A stretch of 64,000 nt of DNA from Moniliella sp. 'wahieum' (lineage: Eukaryota), in contig RSEE01000002.1 of NCBI GenBank assembly GCA_003971905.1, forward strand, positions 496,001-560,000, read 5' to 3'. The notes beneath the pieces were generated by a model. The model saw nothing but the letters and a program-made list of their open reading frames with translations. It did not search any database and was not told the origin of the DNA. The position numbers and the translations under genes are program-made. Shown here one piece after another: positions 16,522-40,083 of this stretch (positions within the stretch are counted from its first letter, which is position 1; each line of letters opens with the position of its first letter).

Positions 16522-18840
16522 ATGGCAGGCGGTGGCCTCGTCGCACGCACCACTGCTCTTGTTTTGTGTCGACCTTCCTGCTATCAACTGTTGCGTCCCT
16601 CCCGCCGCATGTCGTCTTCAACCCCACAGAGGCCACGGGAAGTCGTGGCCGTCATTGGCTCCACCGGGACGGGCAAGTCACAGCTGGCCGTTGAGCTCGC
16701 TCAGCATGTCCAACGCCTGTACGACCACTGCAACTCATCTTCTCGTGCACGAGAGAAGTCGCCGTGCTACGGATCGGCAGAAGTTATCAGTGCCGACAGC
16801 ATGCAGGTCTACCAAGGCTTGGACGTAGTGACCAACAAGGTCACTCCGGACGAGATGGGGGGCATTCCTCATCACCTCATTGACTTCCTTACCCCCAAAG
16901 AGCAGTACCACCTCCTCCAGTTCTGCTCCGACAGCCAGCAGATCGAAGAGGAGCTCCGGCACCGCTCTATCCCGGCCTTGCCTATCATTGCGGGGGGCAC
17001 CACGTACTATGTCCAGCACCTTCTCTTTCCCGGGTTGGTGGTGAGCAACGATATGGAAGATGCTGAGGGGGGTGCAGACCAAGTCTCACAAGGCAATGAC
17101 TGGAAGACGGACGCTCCTCTGCCCGAGTGGATTGAAGATGCCGTCGCCTCTCTCCCTGAACCTGAGGCGCAACTGTTTGAGGCGCTGCGATTCGATTCGT
17201 CAGGGGTGCTGAAGCGGGCCATGACAACGTCCAAAGATCAAAGCTACCTCAAGTCTTCAACGGGGATCGCCAATCCCGTAGTACCGGATGGTCTTCCTCC
17301 TGCTCCACAGGGAATTGAAGCTATGGTGGACCTCAAGTCTGCTTGGCGGGATGAGAAAATCCTGTGGCGCATCCTCAATGCTCTGGATCCGACTATGGCA
17401 AAGCGTTGGCATCCTACCGACAGGCGCAAGATTCTCAACTCACTCCGCGTGCTTATGGCTACGGGAAAGCGCCACTCAGACTGGATCCAGGAAGAACACA
17501 GTCATCGTACAAAGCCTACACCCGACCTTGATGCCCAAGAGAATGATACAAGGGTCCTCCTGTTCTGGGTCTGGAGGAGAACAGAAGAACTCACCGAATC
17601 CCTCAATTCTCGGATTGGAAAGATGGTTCAGCGCGGACTGTTGCCCCAGATTCAAGAGCTGAGGATGATTGCTCATGCACAACGGGCTGAACAACGTCGT
17701 GGCCTTGACCCCACGAAGGATGGACCCCTCAAAAGCCTGGACGTGTTCGATTATGAACGCGGCATTTCCAGTCGATCGGATACAAAGAGTTTGACCCGTT
17801 TTTGCGTTACATTGAAGCACACCAGCTGCGGCCAAGTGGGCGAACGAACATCTAGGCCCTTTGAGTCAAGAATCAGCTTTAGCCACTCGTGAGGTGGACG
17901 AGCTTCCTGTCGAGTCTGAGCCTCATGGAGCGACTAAGGAAGAGTTGGCCACGAAAAAGAACTCTTTGACCACGGAATTAAAGCGATGCAGGTTGCCACT
18001 CGTCAATATGCAAAGAAACAAGTTCGCTGGATCCGCCGCTCGCTGGCTCCAGAGATTCGTCGGGCTCAAGCTGCCGCTGCGCAGGGGGCAAGACATGCCC
18101 CAGGTTGACCTCTTCCTGTTGGATGCGACCGATTTGGAGCACTGGTCTGACCATGTGGCCTCTCCTGCTAAATCAGTGCTCGAGATGTGGTTGACCGGTG
18201 CCCCGCTCGAGTCGCCGTACGATTTACCATTGTGCCAGGATGCTCAAGGCATGTTAAAGGAGGTATTGACTGGCGCACCTCTCCCGCCTGCTCCGTCAGG
18301 AAGAAGAGGCGCCCCCGCCAAGTCCGCAAGACCTCCTCCTGAAGAAAAAGGGAGCTCGATCGAACGCAATGAGTGGCGTATGTGTTCTACTTGCAGCTCT
18401 TTGCCCCCGTACCAAGACTTGATCCAGCACTCTACCCTGGGGAAATATCTCCTCCGATTGGGAAAACAGGGAAAGATCTCCCCTGAGACGCTGGCCACAG
18501 TAGAGCGGGAACTGGCTCTACGGGACGAAGAAGAGGAGCTGCAGCTGCGTCATCTCCGTGGCGAGGGGGAGGCGGGACTGATCCACTCGACGGAACAACG
18601 CTTGTCAGACGATGACCTAGCCCAATTCATCCCCCTGAACTTAAAGCTGACGTGCACATTCGCGTCGCGGACTGGGAGTTCCATACCCGCTCTCGGATGC
18701 ACCGTGCTGCCATTCAGTTTACCTCAAAGGATGCACACATCCGCTCACAGCGCCTGGCGGGCGTGAAGAAAGCCATGGCTCGACAAACAGAGCACCACCA
18801 AGTGAGGCACCCTCCTTGGCAGATCGGTTGCAGCAGATGA
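16522..18840 (+). CDS. MOD5: tRNA dimethylallyltransferase (tRNA isopentenyltransferase)
   Basis: P-loop VIGSTGTGKS and motifs ISADSMQVYQGLDVVTNK, IPHHLIDFL, GGTTYY, RWHPTDRRKI and RIGKMVQRGLL. Frameshifted copies of QSIGYKEF and TRQYAKKQVRWIR are present, as are C-terminal CxxC...HxxxxxH ligands. Several frameshifts. Confidence 0.92.
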
Positions 18841-28939: not shown

Positions 28940-30642
28940 ATGGCCTACGACGACTACGAGTACGACGACCGCACCACCGGCTACGACGCCCACGAGTCCT
29001 ATGGCCGCCACCCCTACCACGACGCCGATGACAGCGACCACCTCGAACCCCGCGACCAGCACGACTACGGCGTGAGCCACAGCCACTCGTACGGCCACCC
29101 CGAGTACGACTACCCCGCCCAGCAGCAGCAGCGCCTGCGCTCCGCCCCCATCTACGAGTATGGCCACGGCGAGTACGACTACCCGACCGCCGTCGACCAG
29201 CCACCTAGCCCGCACCCCCGCCCCTACGGTTCGGACCGAACGCCAACTGAGGACGGGGCCTACGGCGCCGGCGGCTACGACAGACGCTCCGTTCCAAGCG
29301 TCTATGGAGAGGGACGGTCCAACGTGGGCGACATTTGGCTTGCGGATGAGGCCCATCGCCCGGTGCGCGACGAGCGACCCTTGCTGCTAGGGTACGTGCC
29401 TGCCTGCCCTGCGTTCCGACGAGGATGAGCAGGAGATTGACTGTATGCTGACTACCTGACTCACATCTGCCCCTGCAGTTCCATCTTTTGCTTTTTGGCT
29501 TTGGCAATCATTGGAATCGTGTGCGGCATTATGTTGGCTGTCGTGGTGTGTATTTTCGGCCTTCATCGCCTCCCCTCCCTCTCCTCCCCATCCCCCCACC
29601 CTCCTTTCCTCACTAACGACCTCCTTACCTCCCCTCAGTTTGTTCGTCCCCCCAATGTCGGCATTGCTGGATACACCACTCCTAGCGTTTATGTGCAAAA
29701 CCAAGCGTTGATGATGAACACATCGGTATACGCCGGGGTTTCGAACCCCAACTCGGTTAGCGCCAAGGTCAAGAAGGTGCATGCGACGATCTACGAGCGG
29801 GACGTACCCAACCATGTGCTTGGCACCTCGGACACATCCAACTTGAAAGTCAACGCGCACGCCAACACGACCCTTGTCTTGCCTGTGCAGTTCCAGATCG
29901 CATCGTCACAGGACCTGGCCTCCAACGCCCAGACGGTGACTAGCATGGCTCAGAGCTGCGGCTGGGACCTGTCGAGCTTGGCAAAAGCGTTGGGCGTTAG
30001 TTTGCCTTCCAACTTGCGCCGCCGCGCCGCCCCTCACTCGCTAGCCAAGCGCTCAGGCACCGTTCCCCTCTCCGTTGATCTGGACATCAAGGTGTCCGTC
30101 ATGTCACTCAACTTCCATTCTCCGGTACACAACGTGTCGGTAGATGTGACCTGCCCGAGTTTGGCCAACTTGATTGGCGGATCGAACGGCAGCGGCAGCG
30201 GCAGCGGCAGCAGCAGCAGCAGCTCCACCAGTTTGCCCACCTTTAGTTCTCACAGCACTTCCCCCACTTCTACGTCCACCACTAGTGTGCGGAGCAGCAC
30301 AACGTACGTCTTCCTCTCTGTTCCTTTGTGAAAATGTTACTAACATACAGTAGATCTACCCCGGTACCTGCTCCCACCACATCCACCCCGCCCCCCTCGT
30401 CCTCACGCACCCACTCGGCCACGCCCACGTCCACACCGGCCCCGAGCCCTACTTCCATCCCAGCCAATTCTCAGCAGTCCATCGTTAGCTCGGTCCTTTC
30501 GCAAAGCCCGGCTCTCAGCTCCTCGTTGGAGAGCCAAGGTGGTGATGGCGGGGTGGGCAACCCATTCAGCGGTATCTTAAGTCTCATTTCCGGTGGCTTG
30601 CCCATTCGCCGTGCCCTGCCGACTGGGATGCCGATTGCGTAA
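28940..30642 (+). CDS. Type II membrane protein with LEA_2/WHy-like domain and Ser/Thr/Pro-rich tail
   Basis: Tyr/Asp-rich N-terminus, one TM helix (ALAIIGIVCGIMLAVVVCIF), then VRPPNV and VSNPN motifs. Introns at ~29392-29478, ~29560-29638 and ~30304-30351. Confidence 0.65.
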
Positions 30643-32315: not shown

Positions 32316-33742
32316 GATAAAGATGCACACTGGTGGTAGCCACAACAGAAGGAACGAATGAAAAGAATGAAGATGGACACAGAAAAGAAGACGGAGTCCA
32401 ATGGGGCAGTTCTGCGGGCTGAAAAGAGACGAGATGAGAGAGTTGATAATGTGGCTGGGAGAAAAGGATGTCCAAACACCATGACTTTTTGAGGCTGGCG
32501 ACCCTTAGCGACGCTAGTGACTAGTGACGAGGCTCTTGCATTTACAGCATTTGGAGACCACGAGCGATGAGATCGGAGATCGGAGAGCCGAACCACACCC
32601 CGTGTTGATGCCCTATTAGCATGATCAACGTTCGACCTATACTATTGTGTGGGCATGTGTGGATCGGTGGCCTCGCATCCCCGCGCGTGTGGCTCTGTTG
32701 GCTGTGCGCGGACTCCCGGCAAAGGGTATCGTGTTCCATCCTCGGCACTTGCGCCGTTCCTTGCTAGGTCATCGATCATCATGAATCGTGTGTTAAACAA
32801 ACGTCAACGTGTTCGCCAACGTGTTAACGCATCAACGTGTTAATCACATGTGTTAATCATGTGTTAATCATTTGTCACACTGATGTCATGCCGTGTTGCC
32901 TCCGGCCTCCAGGACGAACCGCGAGCACTGTTGCTCGTACTAGGCCTGTGCGGAAAATCCCTGTTTCACAAACGCCGCCAGGCATGCAGGGCCTGCTTCC
33001 AGCTTCAGAAGCCGCACAGCTCTGACAAGCTCTGGCAGCTTTCAAAGGGCTTTTCCAACTGTTTACGCGAGCGCATGCAAGCTGCCACAAGCCGTTTCTT
33101 GGCAAGGGGCTGTTAGTGATCAGGCTGATCATCGACACCGCTGAGTCTCAATCTCAGGCCTGAGGCCCTGAGGCCTAGTCAGATGGTGGCAGCCAAACGA
33201 AGAGGACTGAGTACGTTGAGTTACACACTAGCTTTTAGTAGTCCAGTACAGTATATAGTTACTGAGTTACTGACTGAGCCGTTGTGCAAGTAGCGGCAGG
33301 AACAGGCTTGGCGTTGTTCAGTACCAATAGTCACTGGTCACTAGTGCTGTGGCTTGCGCGCTGGCTGAGCTTGCCCTGACAGTAAGTGACTAGTGGCCAG
33401 CGGCTGCTGCTCCCCCTCTCCCCTCGCTCTACTTCATTTGGTGCGCGCGACACATGTGATCTCGCGTTTTGCTCGCTGCGCCCGCCCCGGCAACGCTGTG
33501 GGGGATTAACAACGTGCTCTTTTGTTGAAGAGCGCGCTGAGGCTGAGCGCTGAGCCGCTGAAGTTCAGCGCTGATGCGCTGATGAACGAACACGTTGAAC
33601 GTTGAGTTGAACGGTCTGAGCGCTGAGCGCTCAGGTTGAGCCCGCGGTTGAGTTCTTCCACCCGGTAGCTGATTTTTTGTCTCGTGTGCCTCGTCTCTTC
33701 TGGACTTTTGCCGGGTCTAATAAGGTAACCGGTAACTGGGTA

Positions 33743-33953
33743 TGTCACAAGCCTAGCTAGCGATGCTGGCGATGGTCGATGGAGATGGCATTCAAGAGCT
33801 AAGGAGAGCTAGAGCTATGGGCCTTGATAGGCTCCTGGCCTGGAGGCCAGTGGAAACCCGTGGAAGGGTCGGAACTCACTGCCCCGGTGCACTGTGTGGA
33901 TCGGGCCACGTGTCACTGAAGGCCGATGGGCTCTAGACCACTGGTGGTCAACA
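33743..33953 (-). repeat. 3' LTR (211 bp)
   Basis: Identical to 38803-39014 except one substitution and a 1-bp indel. Preceded on the minus strand by the purine tract AGCGGGGG. Confidence 0.97.
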
Positions 33954-36900
33954 CCCCCGCTGGCCAGAGGTCTCAGTGGCACGATGGAAGGTTGTAACGT
34001 CCTCAAGCTTGAGGCGAGGCAAGTTGGCCAGGAGTGAGACCTTAGTGGCTGGTTTGGTGAGGATGTCGGCCGGGTTCTCGTTTCCAGCAATGTGCGCGAT
34101 TTTGACTTCGCCCGAGTCGACATGCTGGCGTACGTTGTGGTACCGGATGTTCAGCTCACGTAGTTTGCCCGTGCTGCCCACTTTTTCGGCCAAGGCAAGT
34201 GCCGCCATGTTGTCGCAGTACCAGTGTATGGGCTCGTCTGAGGTGATGGCACCGAGCTCCAGTAAGATGTTTTTAACGTAGTTCGCATCAATGAGGCCCT
34301 CATATCCCGCCGTATATTCGGCCGCAGCAGTGTTGGTGACGCTCTTGGGTTGACGCACGCTCCTCCAGGACACTGGAACCCCGTAGACGAAAAGCAGGCA
34401 TCCCGACGTGGAACGCCATTGGTCAGGGTCTCCAGCCAGGTCGGCATCCGTGTATAGCGCGAGAGCGGGTGCGTCAGGCTCGGGTGTTAGTCGGAGACCG
34501 TAGCCCTTGGTACCGTAGAGGTAGCGGAGGAAGTTTGTTGCCGCAGCGCGGTGGGCCTTGGAGGGATCGGCAGTTGCTCGGCTTAGAGCTGAGATGCCGA
34601 ACAGCGCATCAGGGCGGCACATGCGGGCAGCCCACAGCCCAGATCCTACTTTGGCTTGGTAGTCGCGTCTCTCGGCGGGCAGTGCGGGCGGTTCGGGGTC
34701 GGTGCGCGCGGGGATCATCTTGCTGGGGTGGGGGAGGCCCATAACCAGGGGTGGCGGAACCTCATGTTTGGCAATGGATTCCTCAATGAATTTTGGCTGG
34801 CTAAGGTACAGTTTCCCGTTTATGGTGTCGTACTGGCAGCCAAGATGGTAGTGTAGGGGGCCGTTTCCCCGCACCTCGATATGGGTGTTGATCTCAGTGA
34901 GGAAGGAATCGTAGCGTGCGTGAGACGTGCAGGCGATGAGAAGATCGTCGGTGTGCACGGCAAGGAGGACCGTGTCGCCTTTACGGGGTCGGATGAACAA
35001 GCACGGCTCAGCCAGAGATTGTACAAAACCCATGTCTCCGCGGAGCAAGTCACGGATGAATACCGCCCAGTTTGCGCCGGATTGGTGGAGGCCATATAGG
35101 CTTTTCCGGAGACGCCAGACCTTGCCTTTTTCCTCGGGAAAGAATGGGGGTGGGCGGAGGTACACTTTTTCCGTGAGGGGAGCGTTCAAATAGGCAGAGT
35201 GCACATCAGCAGTGAAGAGGTGGAGGCCGAACTTTCCAGCAAGGGCGATAAGGCTGAGGATGGCAGGAGTGCGCACGGCAGGGGCGAATGTTTGTCCCCA
35301 TGTGTCAGCATCCTGCTGGTGGCCCCCGGCAACGAGACGGGCTCGGTAGCGTAGGAAATTTCCGTCCGCGTCCGTTTTGGTGTTGACGCCACAGACCAAT
35401 CAGCAGCTGCGCGTCTGGAGGGGGCGTGACGACTTCGAATGTGCCGTAGCGGGCTAGGGTGTCGATTTCCGTGCGCATCGCCTCCAGCACTGGTTCGAAT
35501 GAGGGGTGTGATTGGAGGCCCTTCATTGTCTTGGGTGCAACAGGTACTCCGTCCTTGGTGAGCTGGATGCGCTCGTGCGGCCCTGGCTCGCTAAGGGCGA
35601 TCATCGCCTTGTATTCAGGCGGATGGAGACCGTCGCTGTACGCGGGCAGGGCAGTGTCGGGCAGTGGGAAGCGTAGGCCGATCGCAGGACTACGACTACC
35701 GTCAGGGAGGGGAACCGGAGGCAGCGCGGCAGCGTGTGCGTGGAAGTCACCATCATGAGGGTCGTCCGCTACGGGGAGCTGTGCCCAGTCAAGGTCAAAA
35801 CGGCGCTGGTGGGTCCGGGCGGGGTACCGTCTGGTGGTGGGGGTGGTTGGATGGGTGTCGTTTTGTCTTGCGATGGTCGCGTCAGTATCAGTGTTGATTC
35901 TCGGTGGTGTGTTGGGATTTGCAACTTCAATTTTGTTCATTTTTTCTTCTCCCTTTTTGGTTTCAGTGTCAGTCATAGTTCTGTCAGGCAGGGGTTGAGC
36001 GGGGAAGCGAGATACGTCAGGCGGAAAGCGGTCGGGGAAAACCTCGTGGTATTGGCGCTGGGTCCACTTGTATGGTTTTGCCCATTGGGATCGGAACGTG
36101 CCCATGGACGGGTCGTACACAGCCCAGCGCCAACCCTTTGTACCTCGACCTGCGTCGTACCCGACGAGCATGGCTTCGACAGCCCGCGGACTGAGCTTAT
36201 GGTCACGTTGGTCCTGGGCCAGGTGAAGGTACGCCAAGGATCCGAAGGCGTGCATTGGCAGCGGTGGGGGTGACCCCTTGTACAGCTCAGCCCGAGATTG
36301 TGTGCCCTGGCGTGGAGATGTCGGTGGCATGAGGTTGTGCGTCCAGCACCCTGCCAGCAAGGCATCCTGCCACCAGTTTGATGTCGGGAGGCCCGAGGCG
36401 ATGATGAGTTGGCGCGCGCGTGTGGTGATTGCCTGGATGGCTCGCTCGGCCACCCCATTTGATTGACTTTGGCCTGGTATGGTGGTTTCCGTCGTGATAC
36501 CTTCGGATTCAAGGAACGGACGGAGTGCGCTGGTGAGCTCGGGGGCATTGTCTGTCTTCAAGATGCGAAGCAGACGGTCCTTTCCGATGCGTTGCTCGCG
36601 GGTGATGAGTTTTTTCAGCTCCGCCGTGGCTTGTCCTTTCGTCTTTAGGGGAACAGCGAAGGTGTAACGGCTCCAGTCATCAACCGCGACCAGGGCGTAT
36701 CCATGTCCCATGCCAGTGATGCGAGGGAGGTCGACTACGTCGGCGTGCAGTACTTCGAAAGGACGTTCCGAAATGCGGCGGCCGTGGCGCGAAGGGTGGC
36801 TGGGCGCTTTGGCCAGAGCTTTTGTGCAGGTGGGACAATGCCAGAAGGGGCGGATGCGTCGGATTTGGGCAGGGCTGACGCGGAGGCTCGCTCGCGCGTT

Positions 36901-37422
36901 GGCGGTTAGTGTCGGGAGTAGGTCTAGCGCGGCGTGGTTGTACTGTTGGTGAACGTACATGACGTGCTCGATGGTGTTGGCTGCGGTGTGTTGGGTGGCG
37001 ACGGCAGCTTTGGCCGCGTGTTCGTTTGTGGGTGTCGGTTTCGGGACGATGTTCAGCTTGTATGAGGAATCCGCGATTTGGTGATATTTGCCATGCTTGT
37101 CATTTAACCAGATACCTTTTCGGTGGGGGGCGAACCAGGATGCGTGGCCTGCGTCACTTATTTGCGCTACGCTCGTGAGATTGCTTGCTATGCCGGGGAC
37201 GTATAGACTGCCGGGTAGGTCTACATGGATACATTTGCCGTCGGTACACTTGATACCGATGCTACATGTTCCGCGTCCACTGGCTTTAATATGTTTTCCA
37301 TCAGCGATTTCGATTGAGCGGTTGCTGGGCTTGAGGGTTTTGAATACCCTGAGATCCTTCCAGATGCTAGGATCCGCGCCCGAGTCGTGACGAGACTGGA
37401 TGTCCTGGTTGCCCGCGAGTTC
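33948..37422 (-). CDS. pol: Copia Pol polyprotein (protease, integrase, reverse transcriptase, RNase H); one frameshift near 35400
   Basis: PR: HDSGA and LYVPGIASNLTSV. IN: HxxxxH...CPTC, LHAD, TDNAPE, NGVAER, GTKGW. RT: YRARLVAGG, DVHSAYL, LRKSLYGLHQS, HTDD. RH: YTDAD, AAEY, CDN, NPADILTK. The stop lies just inside the 3' LTR. Confidence 0.93.
33954..33961 (-). other. Polypurine tract of the retrotransposon
   Basis: Minus-strand AGCGGGGG directly abuts the TGTTGA start of the 3' LTR. Confidence 0.6.
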
Positions 37423-38654
37423 CTATTTGTCAGATAGGGCAAGGTCCACAGACAGGGTCTCCCCTTCGGAGACGTCGTCTTCGGTGGCAATGTGCGCTCG
37501 CGCGGAGCTGTTGCGGTGCCATTTGTTGTTCGAAGGAACCCCGGTGTGGCCGGACGGCTTTCTCGCAAGAGCACCCCCGCTACGGGGAGATGCACCGGCA
37601 GGAGGACCCCCGCTATGCTGCTGGGATCCCGCGCTGTCGTGTTTGCCAGCGCCCGAGTTGGCGGTCCGGGGGTGACGGCCCCGGTACGGAATTCTGTACT
37701 CTGGGTCCGCTGGGATTCTCTCCACGTCTTGCATTGTCTCCGCCAGAGTCATGTGCTCTAGGCGGCGACGGTCACCAGGGTCGCGGAGGGCCCCGACGAG
37801 GATACGGCGGAATTGCTCGTCCGACATCGGTGTGGTTGCGCTGATCCGGTTGCGGAGCGTCCCCATTTCAGATAGGAACTCGCTCCCGCTGCGCCGGTTT
37901 TGGTAGCAGTGGTGAAAGCGACTGGACAATTCATGATACGTCTTGCAGTCGACCGTACCGTATTTGTTTCGCAGGGCACGGAGCAAGTCAGCTGACGTGT
38001 CAACGTTGTCCTGTGCAATAATGGCAGATTGAACGTCGTTCGGGAGGTGGGACCACAGAAGGTTCTGGAGGCGTAGATCGAGGGACGAGTCGTAGTGTGG
38101 TGACGATGGACCGGAGCGAACGATGTCCTTCGCGGCGGGGGGATGCGGTCCAGGATGTTGAGGATGGAGGGCTCCCAGAGCACATATTCGGTGGGGTCGC
38201 GGAAGGCGTCCTTGCGCGTCGCGTTGGTACGCTCGATCTCTTTTGACGCGCGTTTCTCAGCGTGGCGAAGCTCGGCCATGTCCTCACTCGCGGATGCAAG
38301 GGCCTCACGGGTGTTTTGCGGCTTCGTGAATTCAACGGCCAATACATATTTCTCCAACGCGAGGGTGAGCGTGTAGATCCAATTTTCCTTTCCGCCCGGT
38401 GTTTTCTTGCTCTTCGGTCCATACGCCGCCGTGTGTGCATCCGTAGCGAACGAGCGGCATGTGGAGCGGAGATTGTCAGCGCTGGTGGGCTTGAACGCGC
38501 GGGTGCTTGCGAGGAGGTTGTCTCTGACGTCGGTGAGGGCCTGTTGCCAGGTCGGGTCGGAGACAGGGGTGGTGGTCGGTTCGTCGATGTCCTGCGCCTC
38601 TTCGATGACAGAGACTTCGGGAGGAGGGGTGTTTTCTTCCAGTTCGGGGGGCAT
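37423..38654 (-). CDS. gag: Copia Gag (one frameshift near 38140)
   Basis: ATG in GCCACCATG context. Copia-gag-like SADLLRALRNKYG and EFLSEMGTLRNRI segments. Ends at TAG 37425-37423. Confidence 0.8.
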
Positions 38655-38788: not shown

Positions 38789-38802
38789 TCAGATTGTAGC
38801 TC
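38789..38802 (-). promoter_or_regulatory. Primer-binding site, putatively complementary to a tRNA-Tyr(GUA) anticodon arm
   Basis: Directly after the 5' LTR the RNA reads GAGCTACAATCTGA, with no TGG start. Its complement TCAGA-TT-GTA-GC-TC has anticodon-arm geometry. Confidence 0.55.
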
Positions 38803-39014
38803 TGTCACAGGCCTAGCTAGCGATGCTGGCGATGGTCGATGGAGATGGCATTCAAGAGCTAAGGAGAGCTAGAGCTATGGGCCTTGATAGGCTCCTGGCC
38901 TGGAGGCCAGTGGAAACCCGTGGAAGGGTCGGAACTCACTGCCCCGGTGCACTGTGTGGATCGGGCCACGTGTCACTGAAGGCCGATGGGCTCTAGACCA
39001 CTGGTGGTCAAACA
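38803..39014 (-). repeat. 5' LTR (212 bp)
   Basis: Near-identical copy of 33743-33953, followed by the TSD GGGTA. Confidence 0.97.
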
Positions 39015-40083
39015 GGGTATATCGAGTACCGTCGGAGAGTTGAACGTTGAGATCTGAGAGAGCACTAGTCGGTACAGACGAGATCGAGATTGTAGCGATG
39101 TCCTGATCTACCTGTCAGGTTACGGAGATCTCAATGGATGTTGTTGACGTTGAGCGCGCTGAAGCTACTACACAGAACGGCAGCGTAGGAAGTCAGTTGG
39201 GGGCGAGAGTGATGGGCGTTGGCGATAGGAAAAGCAGGACGATCGAAGAGAGGGCTACAGAAGGATCAGACGATATTGCTTGCTGGCTTCGGGGCGACCA
39301 GGCCAGTGCTAGTCGAGTCCGCGGTGCATCGGAGGCAAGTGAGGCCGGAAATGTTCCTAGTCGCCCCGACGGAACATGTGCATGATACGAGGGTGGCGCA
39401 AGTGCGAGAAAAGTCTATCCTCCTCGGGGGTGTTCTCTCGATTATCGATCTTAGTATGGTCGACATATGATTTTTGATGCACCCTCACATTTGCGTTTGC
39501 CTGCACGGGGTGCTGCTGGTGACGGGAAATACCGGTCATATTGACACTTTTGGTATAGACATTTGAGTGGTGCGATCCAAATGATGCAAGCTCTATAAGA
39601 ATCTTGCTTGCCTCTAATCGCGTAAGACCCAAGCGAGGAAGACAGATCTGCTTTTTGGGGCCCCGAGCGGCGAGCGTCAGGCGTTACGCGTTGTTGGGAT
39701 GGCTTCCTCCATTCGCCCCCGTTCTCTGGAGCAGGCTAGAGTGAACCTCCCGCAATCGTTTGCTTTGCTTTACCCGTTTCGCCTACAGGCTCTCTTGTCT
39801 GATCGATCTGACCGATGCGATGGACGAGATGAACGCGCAGCGCCCCACCCACTACTTGTGCAGATCGCCTGCCGTGCGCCCAGCTGCTCGGCGCACGTGA
39901 CCGCCCCCCTTCTTTTGAATGTTCAAGCTCCCAGCGGCCTCTCGCGTTGCAATATGAAATTTGAACTATGAGTACAACTGAGTGGAAGCTGCCAGGTGAG
40001 CGGAATGGGAAGCAGCAACTCCGCCTCTCTCCCCATCGCGCACTGTCTCCTTTCGAAGCGCTGCCCACCACCACGCCCCCAAG

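Follow-up and report, generated by a model that had tools for sequence, protein, structure and literature searches.

The window, by which we mean the whole 64,000-nucleotide stretch of Moniliella sp. 'wahieum' DNA analysed here, carries on its minus strand a Ty1/copia LTR retrotransposon extending from 39014 to 33743; all the features of the element given below lie on that strand. It is delimited by near-identical LTRs of the TG...CA type, the 5' LTR of 212 bp (38803..39014) and the 3' LTR of 211 bp (33743..33953) showing a single substitution and a one-base difference in length. A 5-bp target-site duplication, TACCC, borders the insertion at 39015..39019 on the left and, with the identical five bases, at 33738..33742 on the right. 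Together with these termini, the domain order gag, PR, IN, RT (RVT_2) is that of Ty1/copia elements. The primer-binding site position is at 38790..38802 and the polypurine-tract position at 33954..33965. The flanks of the insertion (39150-39020 and 33740-33500) contain short repeated motifs and may represent another repeat hosting it. Host genes of the window include one that matches LEA_2 weakly (29441-30331) and a tRNA isopentenyltransferase (16522-17892) sharing about 40% identity with proteins of Tilletia.

The gag ORF (37423..38654) encodes 410 aa in unbroken copies; no zinc knuckle was seen in this Gag and its Pfam gag matches were all sub-threshold. It is divided from pol by an in-frame TAG (37423..37425), established from the sequence and from comparison of copies, the junction reading TCT GAC AAA TAG GAA CTC GCG GGC AAC CAG ... 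CAC GAC TCG GGC GCG. DSGA (37386-37375) begins 12 codons past the TAG and opens the aspartic protease barrel (37147..37386), which corresponds to Pfam Pol_BBD (E 9e-12, residues 13-92 after the stop). Then come the integrase core (36469..36768; rve, E 1.5e-9), an SH3 domain and the copia-type reverse transcriptase (34761..35381; RVT_2, E 2.4e-34), pol being closed by a TGA (33948..33950) inside the start of the 3' LTR. The first in-frame ATG after the stop is codon 155 (36958..36960), downstream of the protease. Sequence and Pfam thus confirm the original prediction of a single in-frame TAG at 37425-37423, followed by DSGA and by no ATG until 36960.

The window copy is broken by two frame shifts, one in gag near 38140 and one near 35386 that parts the reverse transcriptase from the integrase. 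We consider both as private errors or mutations, since most other copies and outside contigs differ at these points. Copies of young elements each carry from 5 to more than 50 indels of one or two bases, most of them private, as is typical of an unpolished long-read assembly, and because such indels are so abundant, frame shifts seen in a single copy of this genome are not trustworthy. By the same token, one copy proves nothing about the stop, and it is the sharing of the TAG that decides.

The stop codon within and between families

A search of the genome with the element (family A) gave 22 matches, of which 20 span the junction. Nineteen match a 20-nt anchor with an identical junction and the last one, a noisy copy, also has TAG, so the stop is not an assembly error. 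When junctions were collected by a pattern search blind to the stop, TAG preceded 74/74 of them (20 in family A, 54 in family B), and the sense codon that the original prediction proposed to look for in other copies occurs at none. A single in-frame stop between gag and protease is fixed in the family. A contig of 5089 nt from an outside assembly displays 178 substitutions relative to the element (96.5% identical), with no indel between 35386 and 38136; the proteins recorded for a contig of this length are a Gag of 410 aa with ..SDK at its end and, called separately from Met155, a Pol of 1004 aa, and its stop is placed at the same codon via these protein calls, the base triplet itself not being visible. 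TAG is absent in frame from three pol frames of 1202, 1146 and 1139 codons, which contain 35-43 Gln codons each, and is therefore not a sense codon in this organism.

Other copia lineages were retrieved by protein and Pfam searches of the genome, again blind to the stop, and 11 of them were readable. Ten (families A-J) have a TAG 12-54 codons before DSG, while in the eleventh, L140, an ordinary copia, gag and protease run on in one uninterrupted frame. The proteases of different families are 24-56% identical, and in families that retain an unbroken copy pol and gag share frame 0. Decay has affected families H and I, the sole I copy having DSG one base out of frame. A stop-less status of family J was rejected, TAG being present in 7/7 copies; it is in frame in two of the six copies reaching DSG, the other four having small deletions. 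Family J has a 54-codon linker between stop and protease, and its Gag carries a CCHC zinc knuckle, absent from the family A Gag.

In reverse transcriptase trees, the eight families that have this domain group with three outside clusters (FastTree 0.84 with 90 sequences; UFBoot 97 with 30 of those). Outside proteins of this clade with an integrase were called without Gag in five of five cases (three clusters), against 7/73 outside the clade; these Pol-only calls, known from proteins alone, could be explained equally by a stop or by a frame shift. At the sequence level, the comparison of these families, which share a common ancestry and whose DNA all comes from one genome, shows the stop to be inherited, in frame and clade-wide in this genome.

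Nucleotide context around the stop

Context was compared at 12 representative junctions, three of them from group D, with about 14 decayed C- or D-like copies left out. The conserved positions are A at -2 (11/12), G+1 (12/12), C+6 and G+7 (11/12 each), G+9 (12/12), and G+10 and G+11 (10/12 each). Some of the decayed D-like copies left out depart from this motif, with A at +1, +7 or +9, which counts against the readthrough reading. In the window element the motif reads GAA CTC GCG GG (37412..37422), a candidate readthrough signal for which the clade consensus is G-N4-C-G-N-G-G-G.

Both +6 and +9 fall on the third base of a codon, where they are fixed while the encoded amino acids vary (Leu, Ser, Gly, Tyr, Cys at the first; Ala, Gly, Trp at the second). 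Four-fold sites elsewhere are at chance or saturated, with 120/394 identical between A and B and 68/227 between A and E. GAA CTC G(C/G)G is common to six families, for which the chance of the codon choice, given the amino acids, is about 0.03 per family, or about 0.001 counting only three deep lineages. Family J provided an unplanned test: it has the TAG and five of the seven positions previously conserved in at least 10/11 junctions, lacking A+2 and G+10. Within the window, only 6/1040 TAG triplets are followed jointly by G+1, C+6, G+7 and G+9. As judged from codon usage at the junctions, the flanks of the stop are conserved as nucleotides at synonymous positions.

UAG is followed by G in 12/12 junctions, as in type III readthrough sites, and conservation of nucleotides at synonymous sites likewise agrees with that class; the junctions do not fit type I or II sites (UAG-CAR-YYA, UGA-CGG/CUA). 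UAG-G is generally a strong stop context, which counts against readthrough. Scanning metagenomes for the motif combined with DSGA codons gave 18 matches, none of which is copia (0/18), and of 48 stretches found in IMG/VR none was confirmed. Among the sequencing runs listed as containing the element, none is an RNA run.

RNA structure downstream of the stop

Hairpins whose 5' arm holds the +9 G-run are predicted in families C, D and E in all the folding windows tried, and largely in I and F, with unrelated sequences. In several families, family A excepted, the predicted hairpins start 4-8 nt after the stop. Combined over nine families, the hairpin p value is 0.002 versus ordinary windows, 0.045 versus grafted controls keeping the G-rich motif and 0.33 versus synonymous recoding. 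Since the result depends in this way on the control, we grade RNA structure, as modelled here, only as a possible helper of readthrough.

Hairpins in families A, B and G are no better than those of controls (p 0.76, 0.95 and 0.88). The original prediction had pointed to a GC-rich segment 3' to the stop of the window element as able to fold. Over 105 nt this segment gives z -1.22, with 21/200 shuffles folding as well, and over 45 and 70 nt a z of about +1.0; in family A it thus does no better than shuffled sequences, and no stable stem-loop or pseudoknot was obtained. Inspection of hairpin loops by eye revealed no compact MuLV-like pseudoknot. A long-range helix in families A and B, pairing +7..+12 with +93..+99 and closing a possible multibranch fold in the window element (37324..37416), shifts with window size, is not significant and was rejected as unproven. 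A 12-nt complement of the junction within gag (near 37884-37873) is treated as chance because one base differs in nine copies and the outside protein differs there.

Two observations touch on these structures. At the family J locus L186 a long nested hairpin is predicted downstream of the TAG, spanning +5 to +80, with -36.7 kcal/mol calculated for 80 nt. At 37395-37375 and in families C and D, polar residues (SRH-DSGA, AQH-DSGA) precede the protease motif in place of the usual hydrophobic pair, and it is their codons that supply the 3' arm of the hairpin after the stop in C and D.

Stop-less derivatives

The stop has been lost repeatedly in family C, where 17 copies with an 81-nt in-frame deletion (e.g. 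L058, L097-L100) and three with TCG (L060, L070, L102) face six with TAG (e.g. L094), that is 20 stop-less copies to 6. The deletion takes out the TAG together with the hairpin's 5' arm. Its endpoints, which are not GT-AG, fall within an imperfect 13-nt repeat, suggesting a template switch of the reverse transcriptase. The seven deletion copies examined are young, separate insertions with distinct target sites and LTRs 98-100% alike, and one has an open frame of 1504 codons. Independent losses are found in L085 (family E), by a short deletion, and in the decayed C-like L068 and L069, which have a sense codon at the site.

As these derivatives have multiplied, the stop is dispensable for the short-term spread of a copy. 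That gag and pol can be fused at the stop site in copies that keep spreading agrees with Gag-Pol being normally produced as a fusion. On the other hand, every family retains stop-keeping members, which suggests long-term selection for the stop.

Primer-binding site and tRNA

The sequence at the primer-binding site position is not of the iMet type and is conserved in families A, B, C, D and G, with an unusual GAG-Y-TACA-A-T-C type; families E, F and J have a GGTTATG type. No primer tRNA matching the conserved site was found among 45 of 63 listed tRNA loci, nor by pattern. In the same register, the unusual site would be complementary to an anticodon arm with GTA, that of tRNA-Tyr, a natural UAG suppressor. 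No such tRNA was found, so this pairing is no more than a lead. None of the 45 tRNA loci is an amber suppressor, which is uninformative given that only 63 of 2133 candidates were scored. About 40 tRNA matches have an identical score (G000, L146-L170 etc.), those examined being one tRNA-Ala(AGC) gene, and five intron-bearing tRNA-Trp-like genes differ only in their intron.

Readthrough and other routes to Pol

We favor programmed UAG readthrough of a type III-like kind as the best and a probable reading of the gag-TAG-pol arrangement. This core of the original prediction is reinforced by the conservation across families and by the nucleotide context, whereas the fold that accompanied it is unsupported in family A. 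Also in favor of readthrough, no usable ATG precedes the catalytic Asp in 9/11 junctions. According to this model, one LTR-to-LTR RNA would be translated from the gag ATG; most ribosomes would terminate at the UAG and release Gag, while a few would insert an amino acid by means of a near-cognate tRNA and go on to produce Gag-Pol, such rare events setting a high Gag:Pol ratio. The signal would consist of the local context, namely A at -2, UAG-G, C+6, G+7, G+9 and the G-run to +11, and a stem-loop starting 4-8 nt after the stop may help in several families. We infer in this way the ribosomal readthrough itself, its rate, the inserted residue and any role of RNA structure.

Splicing is the main rival, although an unlikely one. 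Here the AG of the TAG would act as splice acceptor (TAG|G): in a minor share of the RNA an upstream donor would be spliced to pol, and the RNA left unspliced would give Gag only. The 12 junctions all fit YAG|G; yet acceptors of intron-like host stretches are CAG in 17/21, which is never the case at these junctions, and in family E, which reads CAG-TAG, use of the first AG would keep the stop in the exon. The branch-point-like pentamer CTGAC (37429..37433) lies 3 nt upstream of the TAG, a placement confined to families A and B, branch-like pentamers occur within 14 nt in C, D3 and E, and one intron-like host stretch has a 3-nt spacer. Six of the 11 junctions, however, have no branch pentamer within 45 nt, and the A at -2 (11/12) is unlike a pyrimidine tract. 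Donors are not conserved and no strong one is present within 400 nt in A, B, G, F, E and D3; family A has just one strong phase-0 donor-like hexamer, which sits in the LTR and is preceded by no ATG. Family B, with its own ATG at codon 6, would be suited to such an RNA. Retroposed spliced forms are found at 0/74 junctions, and splicing leaves the conservation from +6 to +11 unexplained.

Slightly less likely still, Pol could be made separately or by bypass, through reinitiation, a non-AUG start, an internal promoter as at the Tca2 junction, or stop hopping. A weak junction promoter has been reported for Tca2 in the accessible text (PMC2194720), families B and F have an ATG at codons 6 and 16, respectively, and the conserved post-stop motif could serve initiation. 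Against this, the first ATG comes after the catalytic Asp in A (155), C (58), D (63-92), E (32) and G (32), and frame 0 is kept between gag and pol, which separate initiation would not require. As for hopping, matched take-off and landing codons exist in H only.

A-to-I editing, which would convert UAG to UGG (Trp) in a fraction of the transcripts, like the correction of premature stops in filamentous ascomycetes, appears very improbable. The neighbors of the edited A (U at -1, purines at +1 and +3) correspond to the preference described for Fusarium (PMC11156358). But the host is Ustilaginomycotina-like (best named matches Tilletia, Parajaminaea and Meira), this editing is reported in the accessible part of the same paper as absent from basidiomycetes, and edited RNA would return as TGG, which is found in 0/74 A and B and 0/9 C junctions. 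A nonsense mutation or artefact, a non-autonomous family or a sense TAG, although the assembly is rich in indel errors, is refuted for practical purposes by a stop common to ten diverged families and an outside assembly, by young copies at distinct target sites and by the three pol frames free of TAG. A +1 frame overlapping the stop, judged by inspection, would need two shifts and was rejected.

Relation to known systems

The layout has precedents in fungal copia elements. Tca2 (pCal) of Candida albicans is described as a Ty1/copia element with a gag-stop-pol arrangement and UGA (PMC2194720), and shares with the present families gag and pol in one frame, a single stop and Pol derived from a gag-pol RNA. 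The original prediction had cited it as a known case of readthrough. When a 300-nt junction was tested in a yeast reporter, however, no readthrough was found according to the accessible text (PMC2194720), and a later account terms the mechanism undetermined in the portion available (PMC7175516). That a similar-looking junction gave none in yeast is an argument against readthrough here. Compared by description, Tca2 differs by its UGA and a predicted pseudoknot, against UAG and no pseudoknot found here; moreover, ten families here define a conserved nucleotide context, in contrast to Tca2. SIRE1 was also put forward as a gag-stop-pol case, but its stop reportedly separates pol from an env-like ORF rather than gag from pol. 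The accessible Tca2 text groups 'gag/pol or pol/env' stops (PMC2194720).

VdLTRE5 of Verticillium dahliae, another Ty1/copia element, is reported to have a gag-stop-pol organization with UGA, assumed to be leaky (PMC3441728). Like the present elements it is a fungal copia without the CARYYA motif; as far as its description goes, it differs by UGA, two copies, an ascomycete host and no defined signal.

Type III sites resemble the present junctions in context. According to the accessible text of Firth et al. 2011, they are characterized by UAG-G, with AAA-UAG-G in luteoviruses and stems after 7-9 nt spacers, and in tobamo- and tobraviruses a G ending the +3 codon is kept without amino-acid conservation (PMC3159437). 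With such sites (MuLV gag-pol, luteovirus, tombusvirus) the present junctions share UAG-G, a purine-rich spacer and the G ending the +3 codon, as well as a predicted stem about 8 nt downstream in families E, I and F and AAA-UAG-G in A, F and D3. They differ in that no pseudoknot was found, that structure is weak or absent in A, B and G, and that these are copia elements known from sequence alone.

A whole lineage of fungal retrotransposons keeping an in-frame gag stop with a short context has also been described among the Ty3/gypsy elements of fission yeasts, Tj1, Tcry1 and Tosmo1-3, with a conserved GAA-TGA-CT (bioRxiv 10.1101/2022.12.06.519325, accessible part). Besides being gypsy, this group has a type II-like GAA-TGA-CT, against A-N-TAG-G-N4-C-G-N-G here, and the Tj1 stop is reported as essential, whereas stop-less derivatives have multiplied here.

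A literature search that left out most subscription papers and supplements retrieved no UAG gag-pol junction in basidiomycete copia, which does not establish its absence from print; the accessible parts of PMC5009743 and PMC12810828 contain nothing on copia junctions. The gag-stop-pol layout in fungal copia was thus known already from Tca2 and VdLTRE5, and what is new is a clade-wide UAG with a shared signal. More tentatively, and with confidence somewhat short of even, we propose that an ancient compact type III UAG signal (A-N-UAG-G-N4-C-G-N-G-G-G, with an optional stem at about +9) runs across a smut-related copia clade and would be the first definable cis-signal for gag-stop-pol copia. Stop-less derivatives would recur and spread making only Gag-Pol, possibly borrowing Gag from stop-keepers.

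How gag-stop copia elements make Pol has been an open question since the reporter work on Tca2, as accessible, found no readthrough. A context of 12-14 nt shared by ten diverged families names the bases to mutate and would offer a direct handle on the mechanism, and the families contain natural controls, with hairpin, without hairpin and stop-less. If it works, a UAG-G signal with little structure would extend the known classes of readthrough, the fungal retroelement cases in the compared papers, as far as accessible, being all UGA. The stop-less lineages, finally, provide a natural experiment on why the Gag:Pol ratio is important.
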